Source: Vicinamibacterales bacterium | GTDB lineage: Bacteria > Acidobacteriota > Vicinamibacteria > Vicinamibacterales > UBA8438 | NCBI GenBank assembly: GCA_963663195.1 | Contig: OY760136.1 | Location: forward strand, 4,478,765 to 4,542,764 | DNA length: 64,000 bases | Direction: 5' to 3' | The notes under the pieces: generated by a model | Databases searched by the model: none | What the model saw: the letters and a program-made list of their open reading frames with translations, nothing else | What the model was told of the DNA's origin: nothing | Made by a program: the position numbers and the translations under genes | Shown here: positions 42,378 through 63,814 of the stretch, in pieces | Layout of the letters: the number at the start of each line of letters is the position of its first letter | How positions within the stretch are numbered: position 1 is the stretch's first letter

Positions 42378-42824
42378 CTACTGTTCGGAGGGCGCGGGGC
42401 GGTCGCCTGACTCCGCGGTGCCCAGCAGTCCCAGATAGCCGATGAAGAACTCGCGCCCGTCGTCGTACAGCAGCGTCTGGCCGTTGGCCCGCAGCGCCCC
42501 GTCCTTGGACTGATAACCGTCGATCGTGACGCGCGCGCCGGGCGGTATGGAGTCCGGCGAGAAGCCGCGTCGCAGCAGGTTCATCGGCGCGGCCGCCTCG
42601 ATCGCCCACTCGTGCGTTCGCCCGTCCTCTCCGATGACGTTGATGTGGATCCAGGGGTGCGGGTTGATCCACTGCACCTTCACCACCTCGCCCGTCAGCG
42701 TGACCGGCCGGCTGCGGTCGAACTCGTTCACCTCGATATGGTGCGCGCGCACCGCCGCGCCCCCGAGCACCAGGCCCGCCAGCAGCACCGCCGCGGCCAT
42801 CGCCGCGCCACGCTTCCCGCTCAT
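42378..42824 (-). CDS. DUF6152-like exported protein
   Basis: Signal peptide ending AVRA, then HH; FD...LTGEV...WINPH...WAIE pattern; GGAGG RBS. Confidence 0.8.
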   Translation of the reverse strand: MSGKRGAAMAAAVLLAGLVLGGAAVRAHHIEVNEFDRSRPVTLTGEVVKVQWINPHPWIHINVIGEDGRTHEWAIEAAAPMNLLRRGFSPDSIPPGARVTIDGYQSKDGALRANGQTLLYDDGREFFIGYLGLLGTAESGDRPAPSEQ

Positions 42825-42843
42825 CGCACACCTCCCCGAAGCG

Positions 42844-43818
42844 CTACCGGGCACCGTCTTCCGCCGTGGCGCCTGCCAGGATGTTGTACAGCCCGTAGTT
42901 CCCTTCGTGGCAGGCGTACTCGTACATCGTGTCCGGGTTCCGCTGCATCGGCAGGGAGAACGTCCAGGCGCTCGACCAGACGGTCGGATCGTCGACCGTA
43001 ACCTCGTACTGCAACGTGTTGTCGGCAACCCGCGTGAAGCGCTCGGTCAGGCGCAGGTTCGCGCCGGAGTTGCTGAACATGGTCTCGCGCAGGAAGTTGG
43101 TCGTCTCGACCACGAGGGTATCGCCGTCCCAGTGCGCGCGGGGATCCCCGCTCCACTGGCGCACGGCGGCGGGCAGGTGCGGCCGCCCGTCGAGCGGGAC
43201 GATGCGGGCGTCGTGAATCATCTCGTTCAGAATCACGACGTGATCCTCGGTCTGGAACACCTGCATGTTGTTGTTGTAGGCGCCGGGCGTCATCGGCGGG
43301 CCGGTGTTGAAGCCCAGGATGCAGCGGACGCGCAGCGCGCCCGGTCCGAGATCCTCGACGAACCCGCCGGGCGTCGGGGCGTCCGGGTCCACGCCGCGGC
43401 GGGCGCGCGTCACCTCCGCGCGGCGGTGCTCGACCGTCGGCGTCAGCGCCGGTATGCGCCCGTCGGGCGGGTCGATCACCAGCGACGTCCGGTCGGTCGT
43501 CACGGACGTGCCCTCGTCGAACCAGAAGTCGTTGTACGGCACCACCCGGCCGGAAGTGTCGTTGTCGCGGCTGCGCCGGCGGATGGTCTCCTCGGAGAAC
43601 TCGGCCGCCGCCTCCTCCGTGAACACCTCGTTCGCCGCCAGGTCCTCCGGACGCTCCATCGGCGTCAGGCTGCGGAAATCCCACACGCCCTGGAGATCGG
43701 GCGCGCCCCACGGCGTGCGCGGCGCGGCGTACGGCTCGGACTGTGCGCCGGCCCCGGCCGGCGCCAGGACGCCGCCCACGGCGATGGTCAACAACGCGAC
43801 GAGCAATCGATGACGCAT
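42844..43818 (-). CDS. Secreted uncharacterised protein, EYACHEGNY family paralog 2
   Basis: Signal peptide from ATG 43818; PRTPWGAPDLQGVW, VRC, EMIH, EYACHEGNY. Confidence 0.85.
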   Translation of the reverse strand: MRHRLLVALLTIAVGGVLAPAGAGAQSEPYAAPRTPWGAPDLQGVWDFRSLTPMERPEDLAANEVFTEEAAAEFSEETIRRRSRDNDTSGRVVPYNDFWFDEGTSVTTDRTSLVIDPPDGRIPALTPTVEHRRAEVTRARRGVDPDAPTPGGFVEDLGPGALRVRCILGFNTGPPMTPGAYNNNMQVFQTEDHVVILNEMIHDARIVPLDGRPHLPAAVRQWSGDPRAHWDGDTLVVETTNFLRETMFSNSGANLRLTERFTRVADNTLQYEVTVDDPTVWSSAWTFSLPMQRNPDTMYEYACHEGNYGLYNILAGATAEDGAR

Positions 43819-43892
43819 GCTGCACCTCCCCTGCGAGCGGCGGGCCCTCCGCGCGCCCACTCGTGCAGTATACCGCTGGTGAGAAATGCGGG

Positions 43893-45041
43893 TTAAGGGT
43901 GCGTTCCCCAGACCAGCTCGGCCAGAAAACCGGCCGGGATGCCGACGACGAACAGCGCCAGGCTGACCAGCAGCAGGCGGGGATATATCGGTGTCCTGAC
44001 GGCGCGGTGCGACAGCTCGACGCGGACCGCCTCCAGCTCGTCGATCGCCTCGTAGGCGCGCGTCAGGCTGCGCTCGTCCGTCACGTCGAAGTAGTCGCCG
44101 CCAAACTCCCGGATCATGTCGATCAGCGGGGGCGCCTCGCTCGACTCCGCGCCGCTGCCCGCGTCGCGAATGTTGATGTAGATCATGTATGGCACGATGT
44201 TGCGCTGATTCAGCGCCGCCAATTCGGCCGACGGCACCTCATCCACATCGGCATCCGTGATGATCAGCACCGCGCGGTGCTGGTTGGACCCACCCCCGGA
44301 CGTAGTCTCGTCGCTGTCGAAGTGCTTCACGATCGACTGCAAGGCGCGAATCAGGTTGGTGTTGCCCTCGGTCGGAATGATGCGCACCTTGTCGGGCGGC
44401 ACGTGGATCTGGTCGCGGCTGGAGCGGAACTGCGGCGCCAGCAGACGCACGGTCACATACGGCGCCTCGAACACCTGGAAGTAGTACAGCTCGTCGTCGA
44501 CGATGAAGTCGTCCACCATGTACGGATAGGACGAGAACATCCACAGCGACACGCGGTCGTTCTTGTCCTGCCGCATGTCCAGGAACCGGAGGTGCGCCTC
44601 GCGCGCCACTTCCGCGCGTGAGCGGCCGGTCTCCGGGAATTCCCACGCCATCGACAGCGACGTGTCGACGAGATCGACGCGCACCCGCGACTCGACGTCG
44701 CCCTGAACCTCTTCCGTACCGGTCAGGAACGGGTCGGAAACCGCCAGCAGCAGCGTGGCGACGGCCAGCAGCAGCACCAGCTTCGGCACGTGGTAGAGCG
44801 CCCGCACGAACGCGCCGCGCTGCAGTTTCTGATGGATGAGGTGGCCGGAGTGGTGGCGCGAGTGGCCGCGCGGCAGAAAGAAAATGCGATACGCCGTCAG
44901 CACGAGGGCGCCGGCGACGACCGCGGCCAGCATGATGGCCAGGCCGACGTCGCCGTAGCGCACCTGATCGAACTGCGTGGCGCCCAGCTCCTGGACGCGG
45001 GTACGCAGGAATTCGATGAACTCGGCCCAGTCGATCAGCAT
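43893..45041 (-). CDS. Membrane-anchored vWA-domain protein, MxaC/BatA-like
   Basis: Two N-terminal TM helices, DTSLS MIDAS, IITD, C-terminal TM. Confidence 0.72.
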   Translation of the reverse strand: MLIDWAEFIEFLRTRVQELGATQFDQVRYGDVGLAIMLAAVVAGALVLTAYRIFFLPRGHSRHHSGHLIHQKLQRGAFVRALYHVPKLVLLLAVATLLLAVSDPFLTGTEEVQGDVESRVRVDLVDTSLSMAWEFPETGRSRAEVAREAHLRFLDMRQDKNDRVSLWMFSSYPYMVDDFIVDDELYYFQVFEAPYVTVRLLAPQFRSSRDQIHVPPDKVRIIPTEGNTNLIRALQSIVKHFDSDETTSGGGSNQHRAVLIITDADVDEVPSAELAALNQRNIVPYMIYINIRDAGSGAESSEAPPLIDMIREFGGDYFDVTDERSLTRAYEAIDELEAVRVELSHRAVRTPIYPRLLLVSLALFVVGIPAGFLAELVWGTHP

Positions 45042-45093
45042 CGTGGTGCGCGGCGCCGGGCCGGCGCTGGCGTTCTACCGTCCGGAACCGGCA

Positions 45094-46107
45094 CTACCGC
45101 GACCCGGCCGCCGGCTGCGTGTTCTTGTTGCGCGCGCCGGCCAGGATCCCCTCGAGGCCGTAGTTGCCTTCGTGGCAGGCGTACTCGTACAGCGGCCCGT
45201 CGGTCCGCCGCATCGGGAACAGCGCGGTCCAGGGGCGCGTGAACGAGTTGGGATCCTCGACCGTGAACTCGTACAGCACCGTATCGGCGTCGACGCGCCA
45301 CAGCCGCTCCACGAGCTGCGTGTCGGCCGTCGAGCCGCGGAACGCGGTCTCGCGCAGGAAGTTGGTCGTCTCGATCACCAGCACGTCGCCTTCCCAGCGG
45401 GCGCGGGAGTCGCCGCTCCACTGGCGCAGATCGCCGTGCGGGCCGCCGTCGGTCGAAATGATCCGGGCGTTGTGGACCATCTCGTTGTAAATCACCACCT
45501 GGCCAGGCGTCTGGAAGATCATGACGTTGTTGTTGTAGGCGCTCGGCACCATCGGCGGTCCCGCGTTGAAGCCCATGATGCAGCGGTCCTGGAGGCTCCG
45601 GTCGGTGTACGAATCGGCGAACCCGGCGGTGAGGTTGGCGCGCGTGATGCGGTTCTTCTCGCGCGCCGCGTCGGTGTAGGGAATCCTGCCGCTCGGCGGG
45701 TCCACGACGAGCGACGTCCGCTTGTCACGCGTCATCTCGACGCCGCGCTCGTACCAGAACTCGTTATAGGACAGGACCCCGCCCTCGGCGCGCGGCGCGT
45801 AGCCGGCCCAGGGTGCGCCCGTGACCGGGTCGAACAGGTCGCGGTTCTGGGCGCGGCGGCGCGCCTCCTCGAACTCCGCGGCCTCCTCCGCCGACAGCGT
45901 CACCTTGCCCTCGAGCTCGTTGGGCCGCTCCATCGGCGTGATCGTGCGGAACGTGTACGTGCCCTGCAGGTCCGGCACCCCCTCCGGCGTACGCGGCGGG
46001 GTCCAGCCGTCCTGCGCTTCGCGCTCGATCTGTGCGGCGGCGGTTGCGGGAACGAGAAATGCGAACGACACGGCCATAAGCAGCGCGGCGCGGTAGCGGC
46101 GGCTCAT
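45094..46107 (-). CDS. Secreted uncharacterised protein, EYACHEGNY family paralog 3
   Basis: Signal peptide from ATG 46107; PRTPEGVPDLQG, DRC, EMVH, EYACHEGNY; AGGAGG RBS. Confidence 0.85.
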   Translation of the reverse strand: MSRRYRAALLMAVSFAFLVPATAAAQIEREAQDGWTPPRTPEGVPDLQGTYTFRTITPMERPNELEGKVTLSAEEAAEFEEARRRAQNRDLFDPVTGAPWAGYAPRAEGGVLSYNEFWYERGVEMTRDKRTSLVVDPPSGRIPYTDAAREKNRITRANLTAGFADSYTDRSLQDRCIMGFNAGPPMVPSAYNNNVMIFQTPGQVVIYNEMVHNARIISTDGGPHGDLRQWSGDSRARWEGDVLVIETTNFLRETAFRGSTADTQLVERLWRVDADTVLYEFTVEDPNSFTRPWTALFPMRRTDGPLYEYACHEGNYGLEGILAGARNKNTQPAAGSR

Positions 46108-46179
46108 CTTCAACCCTCCTGATGACATTGCAGGCAATACTGTCCCACCACGCCGGTCGGACGCAAGTACAGGCGCGTT

Positions 46180-46800
46180 TCACGCGGGCGGGAGCTTGCG
46201 GTAGACCGACAGCCGCCAGGGTGCCGCAACGCCGACCGGCACGTCGCGCCGCGCGTGCAGCGGCAGCTCGTCGATGTCCAGCGAGCGGTCGTGCGTGAAC
46301 AGGCAGAGCGTGGCGCCGGGGGCGCCGTGCCGAACGACGAACTGCTCGAGCCGCCGCTCGTTGCCGTCCGGGTAGTTGACGATGACAAGCGGGTTGCGCA
46401 GGTCGAGCCCGCACGACGCGTACGTCGCCGGATCGCAGTAGTCGCCCTCGACCAGGCGCACCGCGCGGTAGCCGCGGCTCCAGCGCCGCAGGGCCGCCAG
46501 ATTCTCGACCGCCCGGGCGTACAGCTCCGGATCCCATTCGATCCCGTACACCGGCCGTGCGGGTTCGAAGTGCGCCAGCACCGCCGCGACCCGGCCGTCG
46601 CCCATGCCGGCCTCCACCACCGGCGCCGGAGGCGCCGCGGCGCCCAGCACGCCCATCTCGTGCAGCAGCGTGACGACGCCAACGAGCTCGTCAATCGACG
46701 ACGGCACCCAGATGCCCGCGGCCGTCTTGCGGATCGGCACGCCGCGCGCCAATGCCCGCTCCGACCGGTCGAAAACGGCCCGCATCCGCCTGACGGACAT
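46180..46800 (-). CDS. Putative class I SAM-dependent methyltransferase
   Basis: VVEAGMGDGRV motif I, YGIEWD motif II, VEGDY motif III. Confidence 0.65.
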   Translation of the reverse strand: MSVRRMRAVFDRSERALARGVPIRKTAAGIWVPSSIDELVGVVTLLHEMGVLGAAAPPAPVVEAGMGDGRVAAVLAHFEPARPVYGIEWDPELYARAVENLAALRRWSRGYRAVRLVEGDYCDPATYASCGLDLRNPLVIVNYPDGNERRLEQFVVRHGAPGATLCLFTHDRSLDIDELPLHARRDVPVGVAAPWRLSVYRKLPPA

Positions 46801-46904
46801 CCAGCAACAATGTAACCGACCTGTGCCCCGCGGCGCATGACTCCGCCGCCATCCGGCCGCGCGCTGCTATACTGCGCGAAACCCTGAAATCCGGGAGGTG
46901 GCCG

Positions 46905-47900
46905 ATGCACCGCTCTTCAAGCCCGGCGCTGCGCGCCCTTTCGTTGCCCGCCCTGTTGCTGATCCTGCTCGCCGCGGGCGGCGGCCCGCCGGCTGCCGCC
47001 GAACAGGGCCAGGCCGGCTGGAGCGCGCCCCGCACGTCCTGGGGCGATCCGGACCTGCAGGGCGTGTGGACCGCGAACGAGATGCACGCGGTCCCGGTGC
47101 AGCGGCCCGAGGACCTCGAAGCTTCCGACGCGCTCTCCGACGAAGCGGCCGCCGAACGCCGCGAGGCGGCCACGCAGCGCACGGTCAACGCCGAGGGGAT
47201 CGGCAACTACGACCGCGCGTTCCGCGATACCGCGCTCGGCTACACCAGGCAGCAGCCGTCCACCCAGATGTCGCTTGTCGTCGACCCGCAGAACGGCCGC
47301 TTCCCGCCGCTGACGGCCGAGGAGCAGCGCCGCCGCGAGGCGGCGGGGCCACAGCGGTACAACCTGCGCGCCACGACGTGGGAGGAGATGGGCAACTGGC
47401 CGCGCTGCATCACGCGCGGCGCGCTGACCATCGTCCAGCCGAGCGGCTACAACAACGGCGTGCAGATCGTGCAGGGGCCGGGCTACGTCGCCATCACCAA
47501 GGAGATGCTGCACGAGACGCGCATCGTTCCGGTCCAGGACGGCCCGCACGTCGGCGCGGACGTGACCACCTGGTCGGGTGACGCGCGCGGCCGCTGGGAC
47601 GGCGACACGCTGGTGGTCGAGATTGCCAATTTCAACGGCAGGAGCAGCCTGTTCGGCGCGAGCGCGAGCGCCCGCCTCACCGAGCGGTTCACCCGCATCG
47701 GCCCGGACCAGATCGAGTACCTGTTCACCGTCGAGGACCCGACGGTCTGGACCCGGCCGTGGACCGGCCGGATGACCATCTCGAAGGACGATTCGCAGTA
47801 CGAGCTGGTCGAGTACGCGTGCCACGAAGGCAACTACGCCATGGTCAATTCGCTGAGCGGCGCGAGCGCCGCGCTGGAGGCCGAAGGCGGCGCACGGTAG
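46905..47900 (+). CDS. Secreted uncharacterised protein, EYACHEGNY family paralog 4
   Basis: Signal peptide; PRTSWGDPDLQGVW, PRC, EMLH, EYACHEGNY; GGAGG RBS. Confidence 0.85.
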   Translation: MHRSSSPALRALSLPALLLILLAAGGGPPAAAEQGQAGWSAPRTSWGDPDLQGVWTANEMHAVPVQRPEDLEASDALSDEAAAERREAATQRTVNAEGIGNYDRAFRDTALGYTRQQPSTQMSLVVDPQNGRFPPLTAEEQRRREAAGPQRYNLRATTWEEMGNWPRCITRGALTIVQPSGYNNGVQIVQGPGYVAITKEMLHETRIVPVQDGPHVGADVTTWSGDARGRWDGDTLVVEIANFNGRSSLFGASASARLTERFTRIGPDQIEYLFTVEDPTVWTRPWTGRMTISKDDSQYELVEYACHEGNYAMVNSLSGASAALEAEGGAR

Positions 47901-47945
47901 CCGCCGGTCAGGTTATTTTCCCGGCACCCGGGACGGAGGCACGAA

Positions 47946-48866
47946 ATGAAACGCAGCATCGTTCTCGCCCTGCTGATCGGCATCGGCGCCGTCTCGCTGG
48001 CCGTGGTCGCGGCCCAGGACGGCCCGATGGAAATCGAGGTCGAGCAGCTCCGGGACAACCTGTACGTCCTCCGCGGCCAGGGCGGCGGCGGCAACACGGC
48101 GGTCTTCGTCACCACGGACGGCGTCGTTGTCGTCGATTCGAAGAACCCGGGCTGGGGTACGCCGATCCTCGAGACCATCGGCGAGTTGACGAGCAACCCG
48201 ATAACAACGCTCATCAACACCCACAGCCACCACGATCACGTGAGCGGCAACGTGGCCTTCGCGGAAACGGTCGAGGTCGTAACGCACGAGACCACCCGGG
48301 ACAACATGCGGGTGATGCGGCCCTACACCGGACGGACGGAGCCGCCCGCCAACGTGTTCCGCGACTCGAACGGCCGCGGCCTGCCCACGCGCACGTTTCT
48401 GGACCGGCTGACGCTCGGCAGCGGCGCCGACCGCGTCGAGCTGTACTACTTCGGCCGCGGCCACACGGGCGGCGACGCCTGGGTCGCCTTCCCGGCCCTG
48501 CGGACGCTCCATTCCGGCGACGTCTTCCTGGGCCAGCGCGTGCCCTTCCTCGACGCGGAGAACGGCGGCAGCGGCGTCGACATCCCCGACACGCTGCAGG
48601 AGGCCCACGACAACATCCAGGGCATCGACACCATCATCACCGGCCACAGCACGCAGATGACGTGGGCCGACCTGAACGAGTGGGCCGCCTTCAACCGCGA
48701 CTTCCTGCAGATGGTGCTCGACGGCCGCGAGCAGGGCCGCTCGGTCGATGAAATAGCCGCCGCCTGGTCGCTGCCGGCTGCCTACGCGCACTACGACGCG
48801 CCCAACGAAGCCGGCGTGCGGCGCAACGTCCAGGTTATTGTCGACGAGCTCGACGGCGGCCGGTAG
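47946..48866 (+). CDS. Secreted metallo-beta-lactamase-fold hydrolase
   Basis: Signal peptide; THSHHDH, GHTGGD, SGD, TGH. Confidence 0.88.
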   Translation: MKRSIVLALLIGIGAVSLAVVAAQDGPMEIEVEQLRDNLYVLRGQGGGGNTAVFVTTDGVVVVDSKNPGWGTPILETIGELTSNPITTLINTHSHHDHVSGNVAFAETVEVVTHETTRDNMRVMRPYTGRTEPPANVFRDSNGRGLPTRTFLDRLTLGSGADRVELYYFGRGHTGGDAWVAFPALRTLHSGDVFLGQRVPFLDAENGGSGVDIPDTLQEAHDNIQGIDTIITGHSTQMTWADLNEWAAFNRDFLQMVLDGREQGRSVDEIAAAWSLPAAYAHYDAPNEAGVRRNVQVIVDELDGGR

Positions 48867-50598
48867 CCGCGACCACCACGTCCGCTACGAGCCCGACGAG
48901 CGGCCGCCGCTGCCGCTCACCGTGGGCCTCGGGCTGCAGTACGCCATCCTCACTGTCGCCAGCGTCGTGCTGTCGCCGGTGATCCTCATCGGCACGGTCG
49001 GCGGCAGCGAGGCGTACCTGTCCTGGGTCGTCTTCGCGGCGCTCCTGGTCAGCGGCACCAGCACGGTAATCCAGGTCGCGCGCGTCGGCCGGATCGGCTC
49101 CGGCTACCTACTGCTGATGGGCAGCAGCAGCGCCTTCCTCGCGATCTGCGTCACGGCGCTCGAGCGGGGCGGCGGCGGGCTGCTGGCAAGCCTGATCATC
49201 GCCTCTTCCCTGTGCCAGTTCCTGCTCGCCGCGAAGCTCTCGCTGCTGCGGAAGATCTTCACGCCGACGGTGGCGGGCACCGTGCTGATGCTGATTCCGA
49301 TCACGCTGTCGGGAATCATCCTGCGCAAGCTGACGGACGTGCCGGCGGACGCCTCCCCCCTGGCGGCCCCGGTGACCGCGGCGGTCACCCTCGGTGTGAT
49401 AACGCTGATCTCCATCCGCGGCAGCGGCCAGTGGCGGCTCTGGGCCGCCGCCCTGGGCATCGTCGCCGGCTGCGCCGTGGGCGGCCTGGTCTATGGCATC
49501 TACGACACCGAGCGGGTCGTGGAAGCGGCATGGATCGGGCTTCCCGAGCTGGCCTGGCCCGGTATCGACCTCGGTTTCGGTCCCGAATTCTGGGCGCTGC
49601 TGCCAGTGTTCGTCATCCTGACGCTCGTTGGCGCCCTGGACACGATCGGCGACGGCATCGCCATCCAGCGGATCTCGTGGCGCCGGCCGCGGGCCATCGA
49701 TTTCCAGTCGATTCAGGGCGCGCTGGCCGCCGACGGCGTGGGCAACCTGCTGTCCGGCCTGATGGGCACGGTTCCGAATACGACCTACGTGCACAGCATC
49801 GCGGTGGCCGACCTCACGCGGGTGACGGCCCGCGCCGTCGGCGTATGCGTCGGGGTCATATTCGTGGTGCTGGCGTTCCTGCCGAAGCTGGTGGCGGTCA
49901 TCGTCGCCATGCCGGGTCCGGTGGCCGCCGCCTACTACATCGTGATCGTGGCGTCGCTCTTCGTGCTCGGCATGCGGGTCCTCCTGCACGACGGCCTTGA
50001 CTACCGCAAGGGCATAGCCGTGGGACTCGCCTTCTGGCTGGGGATCGCGTTCGAGCTCGACTGGATTTTCCCCGAGTTCCTGCAGGGTGGGTGGAACGAC
50101 CTGCTCGGCAACGGCCTGACCGTCGGCGGCGTGACCGTTATTGCGCTGACGCAGTTCGTGGAGTTGACGGCGCCGCGCGCGCGGCGCCTCAAGACCGAGC
50201 TGACGCTCGAGAATTTTCCGAAGATCGATGCGTTTCTGGCCGAGTTCGCCGCGCGCGGCAAGCGCGACGGCGAAATGACCGAGCGCCTGCGCGCGGTCGG
50301 CGAGGAGCTGCTGGTTACCCTGACGCGGCAGGAAGGCGAGCGGGCGCAAGCCGCGCGGCGCCTCCTGCTCGTCGCGCGAGACGACGGCGACGCCGTCGAT
50401 CTGGAGTTTGCGGCAAGCAGCGGCGAGGCCAATCTCGAGGACCAGCTCGCGCTGCTCGGCGACCAGGTTGCCGGTCCCCCGGTCGAGGAGGAAGTCTCCC
50501 TGCGGCTGCTACGCCACTACGCGTCGTCCGTGCGCCACCAGCAGTTCCACGACACGGACGTGATTACGGTCCGCGTCGGACCGCCCCGTTCACTCTGA
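48838..50598 (+). CDS. NCS2/NAT-family permease with C-terminal soluble RsbW/HATPase-like extension
   Basis: YEPDERPP, GLQY, DTIGD, ADGVGN, many TM helices; ~140 aa hydrophilic tail; TTG start. Confidence 0.78.
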   Translation: MSTSSTAAGSRDHHVRYEPDERPPLPLTVGLGLQYAILTVASVVLSPVILIGTVGGSEAYLSWVVFAALLVSGTSTVIQVARVGRIGSGYLLLMGSSSAFLAICVTALERGGGGLLASLIIASSLCQFLLAAKLSLLRKIFTPTVAGTVLMLIPITLSGIILRKLTDVPADASPLAAPVTAAVTLGVITLISIRGSGQWRLWAAALGIVAGCAVGGLVYGIYDTERVVEAAWIGLPELAWPGIDLGFGPEFWALLPVFVILTLVGALDTIGDGIAIQRISWRRPRAIDFQSIQGALAADGVGNLLSGLMGTVPNTTYVHSIAVADLTRVTARAVGVCVGVIFVVLAFLPKLVAVIVAMPGPVAAAYYIVIVASLFVLGMRVLLHDGLDYRKGIAVGLAFWLGIAFELDWIFPEFLQGGWNDLLGNGLTVGGVTVIALTQFVELTAPRARRLKTELTLENFPKIDAFLAEFAARGKRDGEMTERLRAVGEELLVTLTRQEGERAQAARRLLLVARDDGDAVDLEFAASSGEANLEDQLALLGDQVAGPPVEEEVSLRLLRHYASSVRHQQFHDTDVITVRVGPPRSL

Positions 50599-51603
50599 GG
50601 CGGCGGCTTCGCGCGCCTCCTCGGCGCGGTGGCCGGCCAGGATGCCCTCCATGCCATAGTTGCCCTCGTGGCAGGCGTACTCGTAGATGGCGTCGCTGCT
50701 GCGCGAAAGCGGGATCGACGCGGTCCACGAGCTGGTCCAGATGGTCGGGTCGTCGATCGTGACGGCGTACTCCAGCGTGTCGGGCCCCGCGCGCGTGAAC
50801 CTCTCCACCACCCGCAGGTTGTCCGACGCTCCGCGGAAGCGGCTCTTGGGCGAGTAGTTGCGCGTCTCGACCACCAGCGTGTCGCCCTCCCAGCGGCCCC
50901 TCGAGTCGCCGTGCCACTGGCGCACGGCCGAGTCGAGCGGCGGGCGGGCGTCGATCGGGATGATCCGCGCGTCGTGGTTCATCTCCATGTAGAACACCAC
51001 GTAGTCCGCGGTCTGGAAGATCTGGTAGTAGCTGTTGTAGCCGGCGCCGAGCCGTGGCACGCCGTAGGTGACGCAGCGCTCCTGGAGCGGCACGTCGGTC
51101 CACGTGTCGGCCGGGTGCTCGGCGCTGTGGGCCGCGCGCGCGGCCAGCAGCCGCTCGGCGGCCGGCGTCAGCGGCGGGATGCGGCCGTCCGGCGGTTCGA
51201 CCACCAGCGACGTGCGGTCGTTGAAATCGCGCTCGACGACCCAGAACCCGTTGTAGTTGCCGGTGCTCGGATCGTACGACTCCGCCTTGGTCCTGGCGAT
51301 GGCGGCCAGCACGAGCTGATCGCCGAACAGCGCATCCTGGCCCGGGTCGGTGGCCTCCGCCGCGGCGGCCTGCAGGTTGGCCAGCTCCTCCCCGCTCAGG
51401 CGGGCCTTGCCGGCCCACTCGGCCGGGCGCTCCAGCGGCGTCGCGTTGTTGTTCGCCCAGACGCCCTGCAGGTCCGGATGCCCGTCGGCGGTGCGGGGCG
51501 CGGCCCAGCCCTCCCCCGCCGGCTGCGCGGCCGCGGGCGCGGCGGTCAGGACGGCCAGGACAAAGGCAATCAGGCCAAGTGCCGTAAACGTTTTCTGCGA
51601 CAT
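50590..51603 (-). CDS. Secreted uncharacterised protein, EYACHEGNY family paralog 5
   Basis: Signal peptide; PRTADGHPDLQGVW, ERC, EMNH, EYACHEGNY; GAGGAGG RBS. Confidence 0.85.
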   Translation of the reverse strand: MSQKTFTALGLIAFVLAVLTAAPAAAQPAGEGWAAPRTADGHPDLQGVWANNNATPLERPAEWAGKARLSGEELANLQAAAAEATDPGQDALFGDQLVLAAIARTKAESYDPSTGNYNGFWVVERDFNDRTSLVVEPPDGRIPPLTPAAERLLAARAAHSAEHPADTWTDVPLQERCVTYGVPRLGAGYNSYYQIFQTADYVVFYMEMNHDARIIPIDARPPLDSAVRQWHGDSRGRWEGDTLVVETRNYSPKSRFRGASDNLRVVERFTRAGPDTLEYAVTIDDPTIWTSSWTASIPLSRSSDAIYEYACHEGNYGMEGILAGHRAEEAREAAASE

Positions 51604-51745
51604 GGAAGTCCTCCTCGCGGACCGCTGCGAGCGGCGCCGGCGCCCGTGCGAACGACCGGGTGGACGCCAGCCCTATGGTAGCATCCGGCGACGGCGGCGG
51701 CGGCCGGAATCCGGCCGGCGACACCCGTCGGGCGAAGGAGACGAG

Positions 51746-52780
51746 ATGCGAGCGTTCAGCAGCCGGGCGGCGCGATCGGCGGTCGGCGGGGCGGCCGCGG
51801 CGGCGGTGATCATCGGCCTCTCGGCAACCTGCGTCGACACGCAGGACCGCCAGTCCATGAGCACCCGGGCGGACTTCCTGCGGGCCATGGAAGAGCTGTC
51901 CAACTGGGGCCGCTGGGGCGACGACGACGAGCTCGGCGCGGCCAACCTGATCACGCCGGACAAGCGGCGCGCGGCGGCGGCGCTCGTCAGCGAGGGGCTC
52001 AGCGTATCGCTCGCCCACGACGTCATCCAGGTGGAGGCGATCGACGCGCAGTCGATTCTCGAGCGCCAGGCCTACGGCATCTCGCCGACGCGCGGCTACG
52101 ATCGCCTGGCGTACACCGGCAGCTACCACGGCACCATCCACAGCCACCTCGACTCCATCGCCTGCCACATCATGTGGGAGGGGCGCGGCTACAACGGCTA
52201 CCGCATGGAGGACATCGAGGCCGCCGGCGCCTGCCCGCAGGGGCATATCAACAACCTGAAGGACGGCATCGTGACGCGCGGCATCCTGTTCGACGCGACG
52301 CAACTGCCCGGCAAGGCGACGGCCGAGGGCTGGCTGGAGCCGGGCACCGCCGTGCGCAAGGCCGACCTGGAGGCGCTGGAGGAGCTGCACGGGGTGCGCG
52401 TATCGGAGGGCGACGTCATCCTGCTCTACACCGGCCGCTGGAAGCGGCGCGCCGCGGTGGGGCCGTGGGTGGGGGCCGAGGACGGCGTCGCCGGCTACCA
52501 CGCCGACGTGGCGTACTTCCTGAAGGAGCGCGGCGTCTCGTTCATCGGCCACGACATGTCGAACGACGTCGAGCCGCACGAGTTCTACGACGAGGTGCGC
52601 CTGCCGCTGCACTACCTGGCGCTGGTGGCCCTCGGCGTCGGCATCTTCGACAACCTGGACTTCGAGCGCGCCGTCGAGACGGCGCGGCGGCTCGGCAAGT
52701 ACGAATTCCTGTTCACCGCCTCGCCGCTGCGCATCGAGGGCGGCATGGGCTCGCCGCTCAACCCGATCGCGACCTTCTGA
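51746..52780 (+). CDS. Exported cyclase/kynurenine-formamidase-family metal hydrolase
   Basis: NWGRWGDDDELGAAN, HGTIHSHLD, TRGILFD, GDVILLYTG, GSPLNPIATF; AAGGAG RBS. Confidence 0.85.
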   Translation: MRAFSSRAARSAVGGAAAAAVIIGLSATCVDTQDRQSMSTRADFLRAMEELSNWGRWGDDDELGAANLITPDKRRAAAALVSEGLSVSLAHDVIQVEAIDAQSILERQAYGISPTRGYDRLAYTGSYHGTIHSHLDSIACHIMWEGRGYNGYRMEDIEAAGACPQGHINNLKDGIVTRGILFDATQLPGKATAEGWLEPGTAVRKADLEALEELHGVRVSEGDVILLYTGRWKRRAAVGPWVGAEDGVAGYHADVAYFLKERGVSFIGHDMSNDVEPHEFYDEVRLPLHYLALVALGVGIFDNLDFERAVETARRLGKYEFLFTASPLRIEGGMGSPLNPIATF

Positions 52781-52796: not shown

Positions 52797-54176
52797 TCAG
52801 TTCGTCGCCGCGGCGGTCGCCATCCGCGCGTCGAACAGCGCCAGGTCGACCGCCTCGGCCATCACCCGGTAGCCGTCGTCGTTGCCGTGAATCGCGTCGC
52901 CCGGGTCGTACGCCGGGAGGATGCGCGCCGGATGGTCCGGGTCGCGGATGGCCAGGTCGAATTCGATCACGGCGTCGTACGCGCTGTCGGTCCGCATCCA
53001 CTCGTTGAACGCCTGCCGCTTGGCCTCGCCCGTCTCCGAGTAGGTAATCGCGCCCTCGAACGGCGTCAGCGTGCCGCCGTAGATGCGCAGGCCGCGCGCG
53101 TGCGCCCGCTGCACGAGGGCGGTGTGTCCCGCAATCAGGTCCTCGACCGCGGGCCATGCATGGTCATAGGCGAACCCGACGTCGTTGATCGATTCGAGCA
53201 CGACGACGTGCGTGACGCCCGCCTGCAGCAGCACGTCGCGGTCGAACCGCGAGAGCGCGGAGGGGCCGAAGAACGCGTTCGGGTCGGGCGGCGTCTCGTC
53301 TGGACCGAACGGCGCGCCGCGGCGCAGGATGGTCTCCATGCCGCCGTTGTGGCTCAGCACGCGATTGCCCCCAATGCCGACGTTCAGCACGCCGGGCGCC
53401 GCGTCGCCGTATTCCGCCACGAGCCGCGCGGCGAGGAAGTCGGGCCAGCGGCTGTTGGTATCGGGCGTCGACGCGGTGCCGTCGGTGATGGAATCCCCCA
53501 GCGTGACGATGGCGCCGGGCGCGGTGCGCGTGCTGACGTCAACGCGGGCCAGGTAGAACCAGGTCAGCGTGGTCTCGTCGACCGGCAGCTCCGGCTCGCC
53601 GGCGTGGTCGCCCGGCGCGGACAGATACGTGGTCGACAGCGCGGTGCGGTGCGCCGTCCCCGCCGAATCGGTCGCCCACGTATCGCCCGGCAGGAACAGG
53701 TCGATGGCCAGCTCGGCCAGCGGCGGCACGGCCATTTCGGCCGGGTCGCTCAGCAGCACCGCGCCGCGCTCGATCGTGGCGGACGGCGCGCCGCCGAACG
53801 TCAACGAGCGGCCCGACGCGGCGTCGATCGCCGGGCCGGCCGCGCGCAGGGCGACGTGCGCGCCGCCAATCTCCAGCGGCTCGCTGCCGTACTGGTTGCT
53901 GAACAGCACCCGCACGCCCTCGCCGCCGATGCTTGTGCGCACCACCTGGCGCAGCGTCTGGCCGGCGATGCGCGGCGGCGTGCCCGGTTGGGCGGCGGCT
54001 TCTTCGTCGGGCACCGGCAGCGACACCGGACCGGTCGCCCACGTGCCTATCCACCTCGCCTCCGCCGGCGCCTCCGGCGCCGGCTGCGGCGCGGTCCCGC
54101 AGGCTGCGACCAGCGCCAGGAGCGACGCCGCGATCAACCGCCGGTCAAGCCATGTCCGCCGGGTCAAATTACTCAT
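52797..54176 (-). CDS. SGNH/GDSL hydrolase, probable lipoprotein
   Basis: LVAAC lipobox, WIGTW, GDSITDG, GIGGNR, SIND, DAIH. Confidence 0.88.
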   Translation of the reverse strand: MSNLTRRTWLDRRLIAASLLALVAACGTAPQPAPEAPAEARWIGTWATGPVSLPVPDEEAAAQPGTPPRIAGQTLRQVVRTSIGGEGVRVLFSNQYGSEPLEIGGAHVALRAAGPAIDAASGRSLTFGGAPSATIERGAVLLSDPAEMAVPPLAELAIDLFLPGDTWATDSAGTAHRTALSTTYLSAPGDHAGEPELPVDETTLTWFYLARVDVSTRTAPGAIVTLGDSITDGTASTPDTNSRWPDFLAARLVAEYGDAAPGVLNVGIGGNRVLSHNGGMETILRRGAPFGPDETPPDPNAFFGPSALSRFDRDVLLQAGVTHVVVLESINDVGFAYDHAWPAVEDLIAGHTALVQRAHARGLRIYGGTLTPFEGAITYSETGEAKRQAFNEWMRTDSAYDAVIEFDLAIRDPDHPARILPAYDPGDAIHGNDDGYRVMAEAVDLALFDARMATAAATN

Positions 54177-54469
54177 CTTCTCTCCAGTCCCTGGGCCACG
54201 ATCAGGGTGCCGGGCGCCGCCTCGAAACGTTGCGGAAGAATCGCCTGGTACTCCGGCGAGTCGTACCACGCGCGGAAGGCCTCGCGCGTCGCGAACTCGA
54301 CGATGACGGTGCGCGGATACTCGACCTCGCCCTCGACCACCTCGGGCGTCTCGTCGAATGCCACGACGCGCCCGCCGTGGGCGCTGATGGTCGGCAACGC
54401 CTTGGCAACGTATTGCGCGAGTTGTTCCGGTTTCTCGATGCGTCCCTGCGCCACGACATAGACCGGCAT
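54173..54469 (-). CDS. DUF1330-family protein
   Basis: HGGR...VVEG...VIVEF...AWYDSPEYQ; GGAGGAGG RBS. Confidence 0.85.
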   Translation of the reverse strand: MPVYVVAQGRIEKPEQLAQYVAKALPTISAHGGRVVAFDETPEVVEGEVEYPRTVIVEFATREAFRAWYDSPEYQAILPQRFEAAPGTLIVAQGLERR

Positions 54470-56904: not shown

Positions 56905-56983
56905 GCGGCGCGGCGCCGGAGGCAGCTGAATCTCGGCTACCATCAGCAAGCGCGAATCAGGTTGAATGCAATCGGGAGGATAT

Positions 56984-58738
56984 ATGTCTGCGATCCGTTG
57001 GGCGCTCGTGGCGTGTCTCGTGATGTCCGCAGGACAGGCGCTGGCTCAGCCGGGGAGCGGCTTCGCCCCCGTGACCGACGCGGAGCTGCAGGATCCCGAT
57101 CCGGCCGACTGGCTCATGTGGCGGCGCACGCTCGACAGCTGGGGCTACAGCCCGCTCGACGAGATCGACCGCGACAACGTGGCCGACCTGCGGATGGTCT
57201 GGTCGCGCGCCCTCGCGCCGGGCCTCCAGCAGGGCACTCCGCTGATCCATGACGGCGTCATGTACATGCCCAACCCGCGCGACGTCATCCAGGCGATCGA
57301 CGCCGCGAGCGGCGATCTCATCTGGGAATACCGGCGGTCGCTGCCCGACGATGTGGACGAGTACTTCATCACCATCCTCGCCGACGTCAACCGCAACCTC
57401 GCCATCTACGACAACCTCATCATCGACACCAGCGTCGACGACTACATATTCGCGCTCGACGCCGCGACGGGCCGCCTGGTCTGGGAGACGGAGATCCTCG
57501 ACTACCGGACGCACCCCGCCAACCAGACCTCCGGGCCCATCATCGCCGGCGGCAAGGTCGTCTCGGGCCGCAGCTGCGCGCCGAGTGGCGGTCCCCACGC
57601 GTGCGTCATCACGGCCCACGACCCCGCGACCGGCGCGGAGCTGTGGCGGACGCGCCTGATCCCCGGGCCCGGCGAACCGGGGGACGAGAGCTGGGGGGAC
57701 GTGCCGTTCGAGGAGCGCAAGCACGTCGGCGCCTGGATGGTGCCCAGCTACGACCCGGCGCTCAACCTCCTCTACATCGGCACGTCGGTTACGTCGCCCG
57801 CCCCGAAGTTCATGCTCGGCGGCGTCGACAGGAAGCACCTGTACCACAACTCGACGCTGGCGCTCGACGCCGACACCGGAGACATCGTCTGGTACTACCA
57901 GCACCTGAACGACCACTGGGATCTCGATCACCCGTTCGAACGCATCTTGCTCGACACGGCCGTCGCGCCGGACCCGGCGGCGGTGAGCTGGATCAACCCG
58001 CGCCTGCGGCACGGCGAGGTCCGCAAGGTCGTCACCGGCATTCCCGGCAAGACCGGCATCGTCTACACCCTCGACCGCGAGACCGGGGAGTTCCTGTGGG
58101 CGACGCCGACAACCACGCAGAACGTGATCAGCAACATCGACGGCGCCACCGGCGCGGTGACGGAGAACTCGGAGGTCGTCTTCACGGGCGACGGACAGAC
58201 GGTGCTGGCCTGCCCGACGCTGGTCGGCGGCAAGGACTGGGAGGCGGGTTCCTACAGCCCGCAGACCGGGCTGATGTATTTCCCGCTGCGCAACGCCTGC
58301 GCGCGGATGATGGCTACGGCCGACAGCAGCAGCGTCGCCGCTTCGCTCTATGCCCTCGTCGTGAGGACCGAGATGGCGCCCGGCGCCGACCAGCTCGGCA
58401 CCGTCCAGGCGATCTCTCCGGAGACCGGCGAGCTCGCCTGGAAGTACGAGCAGCGGGCCGCGACCACGTCGCTCGTCGCGACCGCCGGCGGACTCGTGTT
58501 CGGCGGCGATCTCAACGGCCGGTTCCGCGCCCTGGACGCGCAGACCGGGGACGTGCTGTGGGAGGTGAACCTGGGCTCACCGATCACCGGGTTTCCAATC
58601 ACGTTCGCCGTCGACGGCCGGCAGTACGTCGCGGCCAGCACCGGCAACTCGCGCACCGTCTTCTACTTCACGCCGCTCACTCCGGAGCTGCGCCCGAGCA
58701 TGGGCAACAACCTGTTCGTCTTCGCCCTGCCGGACTGA
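56984..58738 (+). CDS. PQQ-binding beta-propeller dehydrogenase-like protein
   Basis: Signal peptide; YSPLDEI, ALDAATG-W repeats, WDLD, FRALDAQTG, GRQYV; GGAGGA RBS. Confidence 0.88.
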   Translation: MSAIRWALVACLVMSAGQALAQPGSGFAPVTDAELQDPDPADWLMWRRTLDSWGYSPLDEIDRDNVADLRMVWSRALAPGLQQGTPLIHDGVMYMPNPRDVIQAIDAASGDLIWEYRRSLPDDVDEYFITILADVNRNLAIYDNLIIDTSVDDYIFALDAATGRLVWETEILDYRTHPANQTSGPIIAGGKVVSGRSCAPSGGPHACVITAHDPATGAELWRTRLIPGPGEPGDESWGDVPFEERKHVGAWMVPSYDPALNLLYIGTSVTSPAPKFMLGGVDRKHLYHNSTLALDADTGDIVWYYQHLNDHWDLDHPFERILLDTAVAPDPAAVSWINPRLRHGEVRKVVTGIPGKTGIVYTLDRETGEFLWATPTTTQNVISNIDGATGAVTENSEVVFTGDGQTVLACPTLVGGKDWEAGSYSPQTGLMYFPLRNACARMMATADSSSVAASLYALVVRTEMAPGADQLGTVQAISPETGELAWKYEQRAATTSLVATAGGLVFGGDLNGRFRALDAQTGDVLWEVNLGSPITGFPITFAVDGRQYVAASTGNSRTVFYFTPLTPELRPSMGNNLFVFALPD

Positions 58739-62981: not shown

Positions 62982-63769
62982 TGCGTCACCAGTCCCTTCA
63001 GGGTCACGAGATACGCCAGCAGGTCCGCCAGCTCCGGCTCGCTCAGCGTCCCGGCGTACGACGGCATGGGCGACGTCTCGAGCGCCGTCAGCTCCCGCAG
63101 GTCCGCCTTGTCGAGGGACACCAGGCGCTCCCGCGCGTCGAAGATCTGCACCGTGTAGGTGTCCTCGTTGAGCCGCCGGCCGGTGATCACCTCGCCGCCG
63201 CGCGTGACCGCGCGCAGCGGGCGGTTCAAGGGCAGCATGGAGCCGCTCGGGTCGAGCAGGGTCTCGCGCATCGAGCCCGCCCCCCGGACGGCGCCGATGG
63301 ACGTCAGGTCGGGCGCCAGCCTGGAGCCGCGGCCGGCCACGCGGTGGCAGCGCGCGCAGTCGCCCTTGCCCTCGAAGATGGCCCGTCCGCGCGCGGCGTC
63401 GCCCAGCGTCACGACGCCGCCGTCGTAGTCGCGCATGGTGCGGACGTAGGCGACCAGGGCCACCAGGTCGGCGCCGGAATAGGCGCCCGGCGGCATGCCG
63501 GTGCCGGGGATGCCGCGCGTGATGACGCGGCGCAGGTTCTGGTCGGTCGTGGCCTGGCGGAACTGGCCGGCCATGAGGTTGACGCCGGATACGCCGTCGC
63601 CCTCCGAGCCGTGGCAGTTGGAGCAGAACTCGTCGTAGAGCTGCGCGCCGCGCTCGATGTCGGCGCGCTCGTACTCCACCGGATGATCCTGCGCCGGCGC
63701 GGGCGCGGCGCCGAGCGCGGACGCGCCGGCCACCATCGCCGCCGCCAGCCGCAGGAGCCGGAATCGCAT
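62978..63769 (-). CDS. Exported di-heme c-type cytochrome
   Basis: Signal peptide, CSNCH and CARCH motifs, GIPGTGMP, APDLTSIG, SPMP; translationally coupled to the PQQ gene. Confidence 0.88.
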   Translation of the reverse strand: MRFRLLRLAAAMVAGASALGAAPAPAQDHPVEYERADIERGAQLYDEFCSNCHGSEGDGVSGVNLMAGQFRQATTDQNLRRVITRGIPGTGMPPGAYSGADLVALVAYVRTMRDYDGGVVTLGDAARGRAIFEGKGDCARCHRVAGRGSRLAPDLTSIGAVRGAGSMRETLLDPSGSMLPLNRPLRAVTRGGEVITGRRLNEDTYTVQIFDARERLVSLDKADLRELTALETSPMPSYAGTLSEPELADLLAYLVTLKGLVTQ

Positions 63770-63785
63770 CCACAAACTGAACGCG

Positions 63786-63814
63786 ATTATTGTGCCGCGC
63801 CGAACGGCTGTCAA
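63786..63814 (-). promoter_or_regulatory. Sigma70-type promoter for the cytochrome c-PQQ operon
   Basis: TTGACA-N17-AATAAT on the minus strand, 16 nt upstream of ATG 63769. Confidence 0.55.

Follow-up and report, generated by a model that had tools for sequence, protein, structure and literature searches.

The DNA analysed here is a stretch of 64,000 nucleotides, called the window in what follows, from the genome of a Vicinamibacterales bacterium (a single contig of 4,558,230 bases, 68.5% G+C). Its first 42 kb are occupied by housekeeping genes (lipoyl synthase, 2-oxoacid:ferredoxin oxidoreductase, mreBCD, PBP2, rodA, RNase G and SppA), and past 42.3 kb it is a succession of exported proteins. 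The subject of this work is a gene family encoding secreted proteins with the motif EYACHEGNY, five copies of which lie in the window, four of them in its second part next to the genes of a small DUF6152 protein and a VWA membrane protein. The family genes and these two companions are the following (aa, amino acids).

Paralog 1: 23057..24022, plus strand, 321 aa; isolated among the housekeeping genes; orthologues elsewhere at 87-93% identity.
Paralog 2: 42844..43860, minus strand, 338 aa; the copy used for structure prediction; orthologues at 83% identity.
Paralog 3: 45094..46137, minus strand, 347 aa; heads the run paralog 3, VWA, paralog 2, DUF6152; orthologues at 87-90% identity.
Paralog 4: 46905..47900, plus strand, 331 aa; a metallo-beta-lactamase-fold gene lies 45 nt downstream; orthologues at 90-98% identity.
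Paralog 5: 50590..51603, minus strand, 337 aa; in P0277, a fused GDSL-family protein, its orthologue makes up the C-terminal half.
DUF6152 protein: 42378..42824, minus strand, 148 aa; signal peptide, mature start His-His; Pfam PF19649 at 95.2 bits (cut-off 27).
VWA membrane protein: 43893..45041, minus strand, 382 aa; VWA_2 at 30.9 bits (cut-off 27), with a D-T-S-L-S motif of the metal-ion-dependent adhesion site type; between paralogs 3 and 2.

The initial annotation of this DNA had described five secreted paralogs, four of them within 9 kb, and both statements hold: the five open reading frames (ORFs) are intact and free of internal stops, encode 321-347 aa, and copies 2 to 5 span 8.8 kb (42844-51603). 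The copies align end to end, with 41-50% identity to the first copy and 65 invariant columns, a similarity far above chance, as profile matches in the genome reach down to E ~1e-140. The motifs PRT..G.PDLQG, EM.H, GD.R..W.GD.LV.E, ER..R and EYACHEGNY each occur once, at homologous positions, in 5/5 copies, as had been announced. All N-termini carry a hydrophobic signal-like segment ending in A-x-A/Q. The mature chains were said to have exactly two cysteines, and they do in all five copies, one in an R-C and one in an A-C-H context; paralog 2 has an additional Cys at residue 13, ahead of its hydrophobic signal segment. The CxxCH haem motif of c-type cytochromes is absent from all five copies, and cytochrome domains appear in the context of the family only as separate domains fused to some relatives.

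A profile search of all six-frame ORFs recovered 193 full-length copies from the genome (more than 80% of the profile model covered), and a stricter motif search 160. Five was therefore a large underestimate, and the window is not a special five-copy locus. With genes of about 1 kb in a genome of 4.56 Mb, the family accounts for ~4-5% of the DNA. A sixth copy (motif ...FEYACHEGNYGLIGILA) lies on the minus strand at ~4543291 of the genome, that is ~64527 in window coordinates, ~0.5 kb beyond the window end. A hydrophobic segment precedes the mature start in 191/193 copies, and the remaining two follow another domain, which in one of them is a cytochrome c. Median pairwise identity among the 193 is 40%, the median to the nearest paralog is 63%, and for only 4 of them does any paralog exceed 90%. 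Every window copy can be matched, at 83-98% identity, to orthologues of its own in other genomes or metagenomes. Judged by these sequence relations, the 193 copies are old, intact paralogs.

The expansion is common to all the sampled genomes of one GTDB family. Thirty relatives were compared, 18 from the GTDB family of the source and 12 from other families of the order. Matches were found in 18/18 of the former (at least 71 in 17 of them, and 18 in one genome of 2.4 Mb; first-look candidate numbers range from 42 to 296), and in six of the latter, with 1-6 matches each, the other six having none. In an even sample of the phylum the family occurs in 13/151 genomes, restricted to four GTDB families. 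Related loci come from Vicinamibacterales/Vicinamibacteraceae, Bryobacterales, Thermoanaerobaculia, Terriglobia and a few metagenome-assembled genomes of Gammaproteobacteria. An exhaustive search of 1.84 billion cluster representatives gave 25,682 matches at E <= 1e-3, 13,564 at <= 1e-10 and 2,844 at <= 1e-30, and a word-indexed database search at least 8000 at E <= 1e-3; where those have a name, it is 'hypothetical protein'. The 9.2 kb stretch that holds paralogs 2 to 5 and the DUF6152 gene is present, whole or in part, as DNA contigs in 20 runs from 9 studies, none of them an RNA dataset; one low-share row is labelled sponge metagenome, which is no evidence of habitat.

The initial annotation knew no function for the family, and the searches agree with it. 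None of the five copies matches a Pfam-A or NCBIfam model at E <= 0.01, neither a single sequence nor a 43-sequence profile matches a solved structure in the PDB (best E 0.26, which is chance level), and the nearest clusters of the ESM Atlas are all nameless; there is thus no curated family and no solved relative. At the level of search results, the literature gave nothing on DUF6152, DUF6644, the ACHEGN motif or an expansion of pyrroloquinoline quinone (PQQ) dehydrogenases in Vicinamibacter or Acidobacteria, and only unrelated papers on PQQ in sponge-associated Acidobacteriota. More than 25,000 sequence clusters are in this way without a name, a Pfam or NCBIfam model or a solved structure, and a curated model would end the 'hypothetical' label for hundreds of genes per genome.

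A structural model of paralog 2 was built with AlphaFold2 (AF2) from the 43-sequence alignment. It has a predicted local distance difference test score (pLDDT) of 72 and a predicted template modelling score of 0.71, and consists of ten strands, most of them with pLDDT 82-97, and of helices within residues 82-182. Confidence is low for residues 106-115 and falls below pLDDT 50 in residues 168-194, where R-C is located, and in 319-332, the stretch with H-E-G-N-Y. All but one of the 50 Foldseek matches listed against the PDB are barrels of the FABP/CRBP/CRABP/SAHS/UnaG type. FABP/CRBP chains are matched with probability 1.00, the lowest E being 4e-4; four matches have E <= 1e-3. The Foldseek-independent comparison by VIA-align, whose matches cover model residues 45-309, gave Z 9.0 to the Oplophorus luciferase (5b0u; root-mean-square deviation 3.5 Å over 124 aligned residues), 8.9 to CRBP4 (6at8), 8.6 to an SAHS protein (5xn9) and 6.7-6.8 to nitrobindins. 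At fold level the prediction is a closed antiparallel barrel of the 8-10-strand, calycin/FABP-like kind, an assignment of moderate confidence. The sequence G58-V-W60 sits in strand 58-61, with the glycine kept in 170/193 genome copies and 259/264 database proteins and the tryptophan in 163/193 and 234/264; a G-x-W in the first strand is what we take to be the calycin signature. The fold is of a known kind, and the family and the gene module in which it occurs are an undescribed variant.

In the model the chain leaves the barrel after the first strand and re-enters it at residue 198, so that an insert of ~135 residues (62-197), with several helices, would stand outside the barrel. This insert is the most variable part of the protein: mean entropy over the 193 copies is 2.41 bits in the insert, 1.85 in the barrel, 1.28 in the first-strand region and 1.62 in the tail, and length varies by up to 83 residues between W60 and Y109, up to 83 between S126 and C180 and up to 36 between W244 and E273. 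The variable loops around a fixed core noted in the initial annotation are thus recovered on the genome scale. On the conserved side, 41 columns are invariant among 43 diverse members, and Q203, R219, G238, W244, G246, L249, V250, E273, R274, D291, E314 and C317 are each conserved in 95% or more of the 193 copies. Conservation is highest in the stretch E-x-x-C-x-E, which would lie in the tail, outside the barrel strands.

The cysteine pair is near-universal well beyond the window: it is present in 181/193 genome copies and in 261/264 database proteins shorter than 460 aa, and those without it are either truncated or align poorly over the insert. For a Sec-exported protein the simplest reading of such a pair is a disulfide, which here probably links the insert to the C-terminal tail. 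Mean-field direct-coupling analysis (677 sequences, effective number 496), applied to the question of a contact between RC and CHE, returned as its top pairs gap-driven runs of neighbouring columns, with no strand ladders. The remaining residues of the motifs behave differently, as Met214 is conserved in 107, His216 in 138 and His318 in 170 of the 193 copies. Among the 677 sequences, loss of His216 goes with loss of Met214 and of the Y-N motif (odds ratios 4-6), and His318 is retained in all 94 sequences without His216; since His216 is lost independently of His318, EMxH and CHE do not form one unit. Moreover, 12 genome copies, referred to here as CVE-type as opposed to CHE-type, read E-[FY]-[RK]-C-V-E in place of E-Y-A-C-H-E and also lack the His and Met of EMxH. 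The fixed Cys/His/Glu/Met metal set that had been proposed for the family is not upheld by these counts, and neither is the ligand invariance of a type-1 copper site or of any other fixed His/Cys/Met site.

The family domain is frequently joined to other exported domains. At E <= 1e-10 it was found in 236 proteins of 609-2000 aa; partner domains were counted in the 120 of these that were listed, and the position of the domain in 128 that were examined. The domain is C-terminal in 94/128 and N-terminal in 22/128, and 6/128 are tandem doubles. Pfam scans of 16 long proteins confirmed the partner domains beside the family domain, and hydrolases make up 75/120 of the listed fusions, whose partners are distributed as follows.

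GDSL hydrolase: 32/120.
NHL/SGL lactonase-like propellers: 18/120.
Tannase/feruloyl esterase: 17/120.
PQQ dehydrogenase: 9/120, 6 of them with cytochrome c.
Big_7: 6/120.
Tandem doubles: 6/120, 3 of them with leucine-rich repeats (LRR).
Amidohydrolase: 5/120.
Lipocalin_5, ankyrin, glyoxalase, no other domain: 3/120 each.
M28 peptidase, DUF2911, prenyltransferase-like: 2/120 each.
Nine others: 1/120 each.

One listed fusion is to a reaction-centre-type cytochrome. A link to DUF3471 was considered and rejected, as in P0341 the DUF3471 match (255-339) stands beside the family-like stretches and not on them.

One fusion corresponds to two separate genes of the window. The exported GDSL/SGNH hydrolase gene and paralog 5 are on the same strand, 1.2 kb apart, and a cyclase-family gene lies on the opposite strand in the gap.

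GDSL/SGNH hydrolase: 52797..54269, minus strand, 490 aa; exported; assigned by Pfam; its orthologue is the N-terminal half of P0277.
Cyclase-family protein (PF04199): 51350..52780, plus strand, 40 bits (cut-off 23.1); the listed ORF overlaps paralog 5, so that the true start is probably later than 51350.

In P0277, a protein of 768 aa from a relative that is present in NCBI and ENA, residues 43-450 are 82% identical over 408 aa to the window GDSL protein and residues 468-766 are 82% identical over 299 aa to paralog 5, the halves being joined by a short Ala/Pro linker at the position of the paralog 5 signal peptide. GDSL homologues number only 3 in the genome, too few for adjacency statistics. 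The split and the fused form together make a directly testable system of enzyme plus module.

A second group of partners is made up of the PQQ dehydrogenases. The genome encodes some 120-150 of these propeller enzymes: a BLAST cluster contains 145, and a local profile matched 152 ORFs, in 122 cases with more than 70% of the model covered. This expansion is extreme for a genome of 4.56 Mb, the relatives of the GTDB family appear to share it, and that of the barrel family, equally unusual, runs parallel to it. Adjacency was evaluated on rough gene calls based on G+C at third codon positions, 3089 genes in all; the counts are conservative, because the calls contain only 171 of the 193 copies (paralog 5 was missed). 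PQQ genes stand directly beside a family gene in 27/143 cases, compared with 14.3 +/- 3.6 in 1000 shuffles (maximum 27), and pairs of neighbouring family genes number 34, where 9.4 are expected. Across 31 related genomes, first-look counts of the family and of PQQ enzymes correlate with Spearman coefficients of 0.87 over all genomes, 0.71 among those of the GTDB family and 0.85 among those of the genus, these inputs being rough proxies and the kin not independent. The association with PQQ enzymes proposed in the initial annotation is supported by the roughly two-fold enrichment and by the co-expansion in the same lineage.

Taking into account: (i) the FABP-like predicted fold; (ii) export; (iii) the fixed scaffold with a variable insert that would stand over the barrel mouth; (iv) the age of the paralogs, each of which is retained across species, and (v) the promiscuity of the fusions, we propose, tentatively and with somewhat less than even confidence, that the family is a diversified periplasmic module that holds small molecules for exported hydrolases and PQQ dehydrogenases, and that acts also as a free protein. 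In this model, a Sec-exported calycin (FABP-like) beta-barrel would carry the ~135-residue variable insert in place of the helix-turn-helix lid of FABP. The cysteine pair, R-C in the insert and A-C-H after the last strand, would probably form a disulfide that clamps the tail of the protein onto the insert. The conserved barrel floor would grip a chemical group common to the ligands, and the variable insert and loops would select among them. The module would thereby capture, solubilise or pass on small organic molecules, either substrates or products and probably hydrophobic or amphipathic in character, in the service of the exported hydrolases and PQQ dehydrogenases that the genome encodes in very large numbers; the substrates of the fusion partners are small esters, amides, lactones and alcohols. 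The data show the family and its size, the export signal, the predicted fold, the fusions and the gene neighbourhoods, whereas we infer that ligands are bound, that the cysteines form a disulfide and that enzymes receive the ligand. If the proposal is right, the family would be a new kind of module conferring specificity on exported enzymes, namely esterases, amidohydrolases and quinoprotein dehydrogenases, and would give insight into the use of complex organic matter by abundant soil and marine Acidobacteriota.

Several results weigh against this proposal and leave rival explanations open. A VIA Z of 9 is only moderate evidence for the fold, because values of 7-8 are common in models without true relatives. 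The PQQ adjacency enrichment is only about two-fold, and in the 3089 gene calls no neighbour class other than PQQ, DUF6152 and the family itself is enriched. The distances of adjoining family and PQQ genes do not co-diversify (Mantel r 0.01, P 0.43, 26 pairs), so that there is no sign of cognate one-to-one pairs. In genomes with few copies the family belongs to a conserved gene module that also comprises DUF6152, membrane proteins of the DUF6644 type and, in many cases, cytochromes; this suggests that the ancestral role was more specific and possibly linked to redox chemistry or metals. Finally, the dozen or so polar residues kept at 95% or more resemble an active site or a partner interface as much as a binding floor.

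This last point bears on a different explanation, that the members are themselves enzymes: calycin-fold isomerases, hydratases, cyclases or lyases acting before or after the partner enzymes, with a catalytic site formed by the polar residues of the barrel and the choice of substrate left to the variable insert. Such a number of polar residues fixed in 193 old paralogs, and of invariant columns in the 43-member alignment, is more than is usual for binders of varied ligands. Calycin enzymes are among the VIA matches: the 5b0u luciferase already mentioned, the phycobiliprotein lyase 4tq2 (Z 6.4), the spirocyclase OlmO (7sfn, Z 6.2) and the lipocalin-type prostaglandin D synthase 4orr (Z 4.7). The pairing of a CHE-type copy with a CVE-type copy devoid of the His and Met, described below, recalls pairs of active and inactive paralogs, and consecutive enzymes of a pathway are often fused. 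However, no catalytic motif of a known enzyme family was matched in the Pfam, NCBIfam and PDB searches, the two cysteines more likely form a disulfide and would then offer no free thiol, and His216 and Met214 are frequently substituted. The partners, from esterases, amidohydrolases and PQQ dehydrogenases to ankyrin, LRR and Big_7, are also so varied in their chemistry that a single follow-up reaction is difficult to propose. On balance we regard an enzymatic role as unlikely.

A recurrent companion of the family is DUF6152. In the window the minus-strand run of paralog 3, VWA, paralog 2 and DUF6152 has gaps of 52, 32 and 19 nt, the last of these separating the stop of paralog 2 from the DUF6152 start. 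Over 33 DUF6152 sequences the invariant residues are H28 and H29 (the mature N-terminus), P55, H56, W73 and E76, and the AF2 model (pLDDT 84.5) is an oligonucleotide/oligosaccharide-binding (OB) fold, with VIA Z 9.4 to SSB/PriB and a best Foldseek E of 1e-3. Of 21 DUF6152 ORFs in the genome, 20 are at most 1.5 kb from a family copy, 19 of them on the same strand, and in the next-gene test 11/15 adjoin one, compared with 1.7 expected. DUF6152 is present in 13/13 family-positive genomes of the 151 and in 1/138 negatives, there as a weak match (E 5e-9). The co-occurrence and adjacency suspected from the window alone are supported by these counts. DUF6152 genes adjoin 10/12 CVE-type copies, and the order CVE-type, CHE-type, DUF6152, with the genes overlapping or near-touching, was found in 7/80 unselected loci of other genomes (DUF6152 in 15/80) and in four loci from low-copy genomes. 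Coordinates were also compared for eight genomes of the phylum sample with few copies, and in each of them a match scoring over the barrel only is followed by a full-length match and, just downstream, by DUF6152.

Pfam annotation of 18 such module loci showed one or two DUF6644 proteins in 8, a PQQ dehydrogenase in 6, an amidohydrolase or amidase in 3, a reaction-centre-type cytochrome in 2 and a TonB-dependent receptor in 2. DUF6644 itself has a faint match to DUF2214. Three DUF6644 pairs occur in the source genome, all beside such modules and none in the window. One module of the genome combines a PQQ dehydrogenase, a cytochrome c fused to a family barrel, DUF6152 and a CHE-type copy, and another contains cytochrome c, cytochrome c'-like and ferredoxin genes. 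As a separate observation, at locus L136 (C1:3199865-3205921) a histidine kinase and a response regulator stand beside three DUF6152 genes, a small cytochrome c, a CVE-type barrel, a DUF6644 pair, a cytochrome c'-like protein and a 4Fe-4S ferredoxin; this may be a regulated, complete core module. The VWA protein has an orthologue in 18/18 genomes of the GTDB family and in 0/12 from the other families of the order (E <= 1e-20). It adjoins DUF6152 or a family copy in 12/12 loci, DUF6152 follows it directly in eight genomes, and the exact window order recurs in two close relatives; its only NCBIfam match is weak and of the BatA type (15.9 bits, cut-off 380).

These neighbourhoods speak for the interpretation that RC, EMxH and CHEGNY supply Cys, His, Glu and Met ligands to a conserved metal or redox centre, which would serve periplasmic electron transfer or metal handling together with DUF6152, the VWA protein, PQQ enzymes and cytochromes. 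The His-His start of mature DUF6152, with its further invariant histidine, resembles the N-terminal-histidine copper sites of CopC, YcnI and lytic polysaccharide monooxygenases; DUF6644 or cytochromes accompany many of the modules, a cytochrome c-barrel fusion stands between a PQQ dehydrogenase and DUF6152, and a minority of the listed fusions joins the domain to PQQ dehydrogenases or to a cytochrome. Against it are the residue counts themselves, with His216 lost independently of His318, the CVE subfamily lacking all three of Met214, His216 and His318, and CxxCH in 0/5 copies; the hydrolases that dominate the fusions need no electron or metal donor, and the invariant cysteines of a Sec-exported protein are most simply a disulfide. 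We regard a metal or redox centre in the barrel as improbable. Of the initial interpretation, the context of periplasmic scavenging and the partnership with DUF6152 stand, and the fixed metal-ligand set does not.

The constant gene order could also mean that the barrel is a docking or tethering module for proteins: the partners of an ancestral CVE plus CHE pair would be DUF6152 and the two DUF6644 membrane proteins, and the cargo of the fused and free copies would be exported enzymes, kept at the membrane or in an assembly, and not small molecules. The recurrence of the order in unselected loci and in every low-copy genome compared, the DUF6644 pairs flanking 8/18 loci, the C-terminal position of most fused domains, the presence of protein-binding repeats (ankyrin, LRR) among the partners and the location of E-x-x-C-x-E in the tail are all compatible with docking. 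Nevertheless, some 180 free copies would have nothing to tether, DUF6152 is near only 32/193 copies, and the three DUF6644 pairs are few for the whole genome. Between adjoining family and DUF6152 genes, sequence distances show no significant correlation (Mantel r 0.26, P 0.06, 16 pairs). We regard docking as an improbable primary role for the barrel; the prediction of a complex between mature paralog 2 and mature DUF6152 (score 0.19, mark 0.32) counts neither for nor against it.

A broader possibility, which we consider quite unlikely, is that an undescribed periplasmic system is formed by the barrels with DUF6152 and the two DUF6644 proteins, joined in this lineage by VWA. In it a heterodimer of a His/Met-bearing CHE-type and a CVE-type barrel, a histidine-brace-like OB metalloprotein and a small membrane partner would link the periplasmic oxidation of small organics, by PQQ dehydrogenases and cytochromes, to the membrane, and one Vicinamibacterales family would have multiplied the CHE-type nearly 200-fold beside the 120-150 PQQ dehydrogenases. 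If this were so, the multiplied copies would be the substrate-capture arm of a life that oxidises and hydrolyses complex dissolved organic matter outside the cytoplasm.

With the small-molecule-holding module as the preferred proposal, the closest known systems are the FABP/CRBP/CRABP group, SAHS, UnaG and the 19-kDa Oplophorus luciferase. The family shares with them the predicted ten-strand antiparallel barrel with G-x-W in the first strand, and the FABP group, which gave the best structural matches, also has an element between strands A and B over the barrel mouth, as is predicted here. The fold of that group typically holds one hydrophobic or amphipathic small molecule. The differences are considerable. 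There is no sequence similarity (no Pfam match at E <= 0.01, Lipocalin PF00061 included, and at E <= 10 in the PDB only three chance-level rows); the family is bacterial and Sec-exported, with mature proteins of ~300 residues compared with ~130, and in place of a short helix-turn-helix lid it has the ~135-residue variable insert. The invariant Cys pair, the E-x-x-C-H-E-G-N-Y tail, the up to ~190 copies per genome and the frequent enzyme fusions are likewise its own.

Calycin-fold barrels of similar size are known from bacteria and plants, namely Rv0813 (2fwv), DUF3598 (2o62) and the haem barrels of the nitrobindin/THAP4 type (3ia8, 3wjb), with VIA Z 6.3-6.8, that is lower structural scores than the FABP group, and without a sequence relation to the family. 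YceI is a periplasmic isoprenoid-binding barrel encoded beside a membrane cytochrome b561, a neighbourhood that is echoed by the barrel and DUF6644. To our knowledge, none of the nitrobindin, Rv0813, DUF3598 and YceI families is expanded or fused in the manner described here. By analogy, the family may be compared with carbohydrate-binding modules, non-catalytic domains which also occur free or appended, mostly at the C-terminus, to many unrelated exported catalytic domains, and which would resemble it in having variable binding loops on a fixed beta scaffold. Their fold is different, and instead of glycoside hydrolases the family has esterases, amidohydrolases, PQQ dehydrogenases and lactonase-like propellers as partners. 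DUF6152 with DUF6644 is reminiscent of CopC-CopD, YcnI-YcnJ and CusF, in which a small exported beta protein with a mature N-terminal histidine is found with small multi-helix membrane partners; CusF is an OB fold, as predicted for DUF6152. Unlike in those systems, DUF6152 adjoins the barrel family, which is missing from copper systems; it has no sequence match to their proteins.

The other genes of the second part of the window are the following.

Metallo-beta-lactamase-fold protein, exported: 47946..48866, plus strand, 306 aa; Lactamase_B at 52.8 bits.
NCS2 nucleobase-type permease: 48838..50598, plus strand, 586 aa; Xan_ur_permease at 153.5 bits; overlaps the end of the metallo-beta-lactamase-fold gene.
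DUF5916 protein: 54547-56904, plus strand, 785 aa; one of 28 genome paralogs; between the GDSL gene and the first PQQ dehydrogenase.
PQQ-type beta-propeller dehydrogenase: 56966..58738, plus strand; PF01011, E 2.5e-61.
PIN-domain ORF: 58865-59263, minus strand, 132 aa; between two PQQ dehydrogenase genes.
PQQ-type beta-propeller dehydrogenase: 59553..61265, minus strand; PF01011, E 2.8e-98.
PQQ-type dehydrogenase: 61311..62934, minus strand, start approximate; PF01011, E 1.1e-80, matched from residue 302.
Di-haem cytochrome c: 62978..63814, minus strand, 278 aa; CSNCH and CARCH; directly upstream of a PQQ dehydrogenase gene.

The neighbours named in the initial annotation, that is the His-His protein (DUF6152), the VWA protein, the three PQQ dehydrogenases and the di-haem cytochrome c, are thus real; the listed 820-aa ORF of the third dehydrogenase is over-extended upstream across the cytochrome gene, which is in another frame. 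The best NCBIfam match of the metallo-beta-lactamase-fold protein is TIGR04559, 'quinoprotein relay system zinc metallohydrolase 2' (72.6 bits, cut-off 280), followed by a second model of that kind (55.7 bits, cut-off 300); it may be a distant relative of the hydrolases that accompany PQQ enzymes. Just upstream of paralog 3, on the same strand, an ORF at 46180-46800 (minus strand, 206 aa) has a G-x-G-x-G motif like that of S-adenosylmethionine-dependent methyltransferases, no signal peptide and weak NCBIfam matches (E 5e-4 to 9e-3); a link to the methyltransferase part of the barrel fusion P0263 was rejected, as there is no real similarity (best E 0.018). Other large paralog sets were seen among the rough gene calls of the genome: an unannotated family of ~444 aa with 62 copies, often beside a cytochrome c protein of ~506 aa with 36-38 copies, PSD/PSCyt (DUF1592/1588/1587/1595/1585) proteins with 34 together with DUF1552 with 27-28, ankyrin-repeat proteins with 35, CarboxypepD_reg with 33, DUF5916 with 28, NHL with 23, Cyclase with 18, metallo-beta-lactamase-fold proteins with 16, SnoaL_4 with 15, and GSDH and DUF3604 with 13 each. 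Examples of such loci are C1:1749526-1752384 and C1:1734026-1737822.

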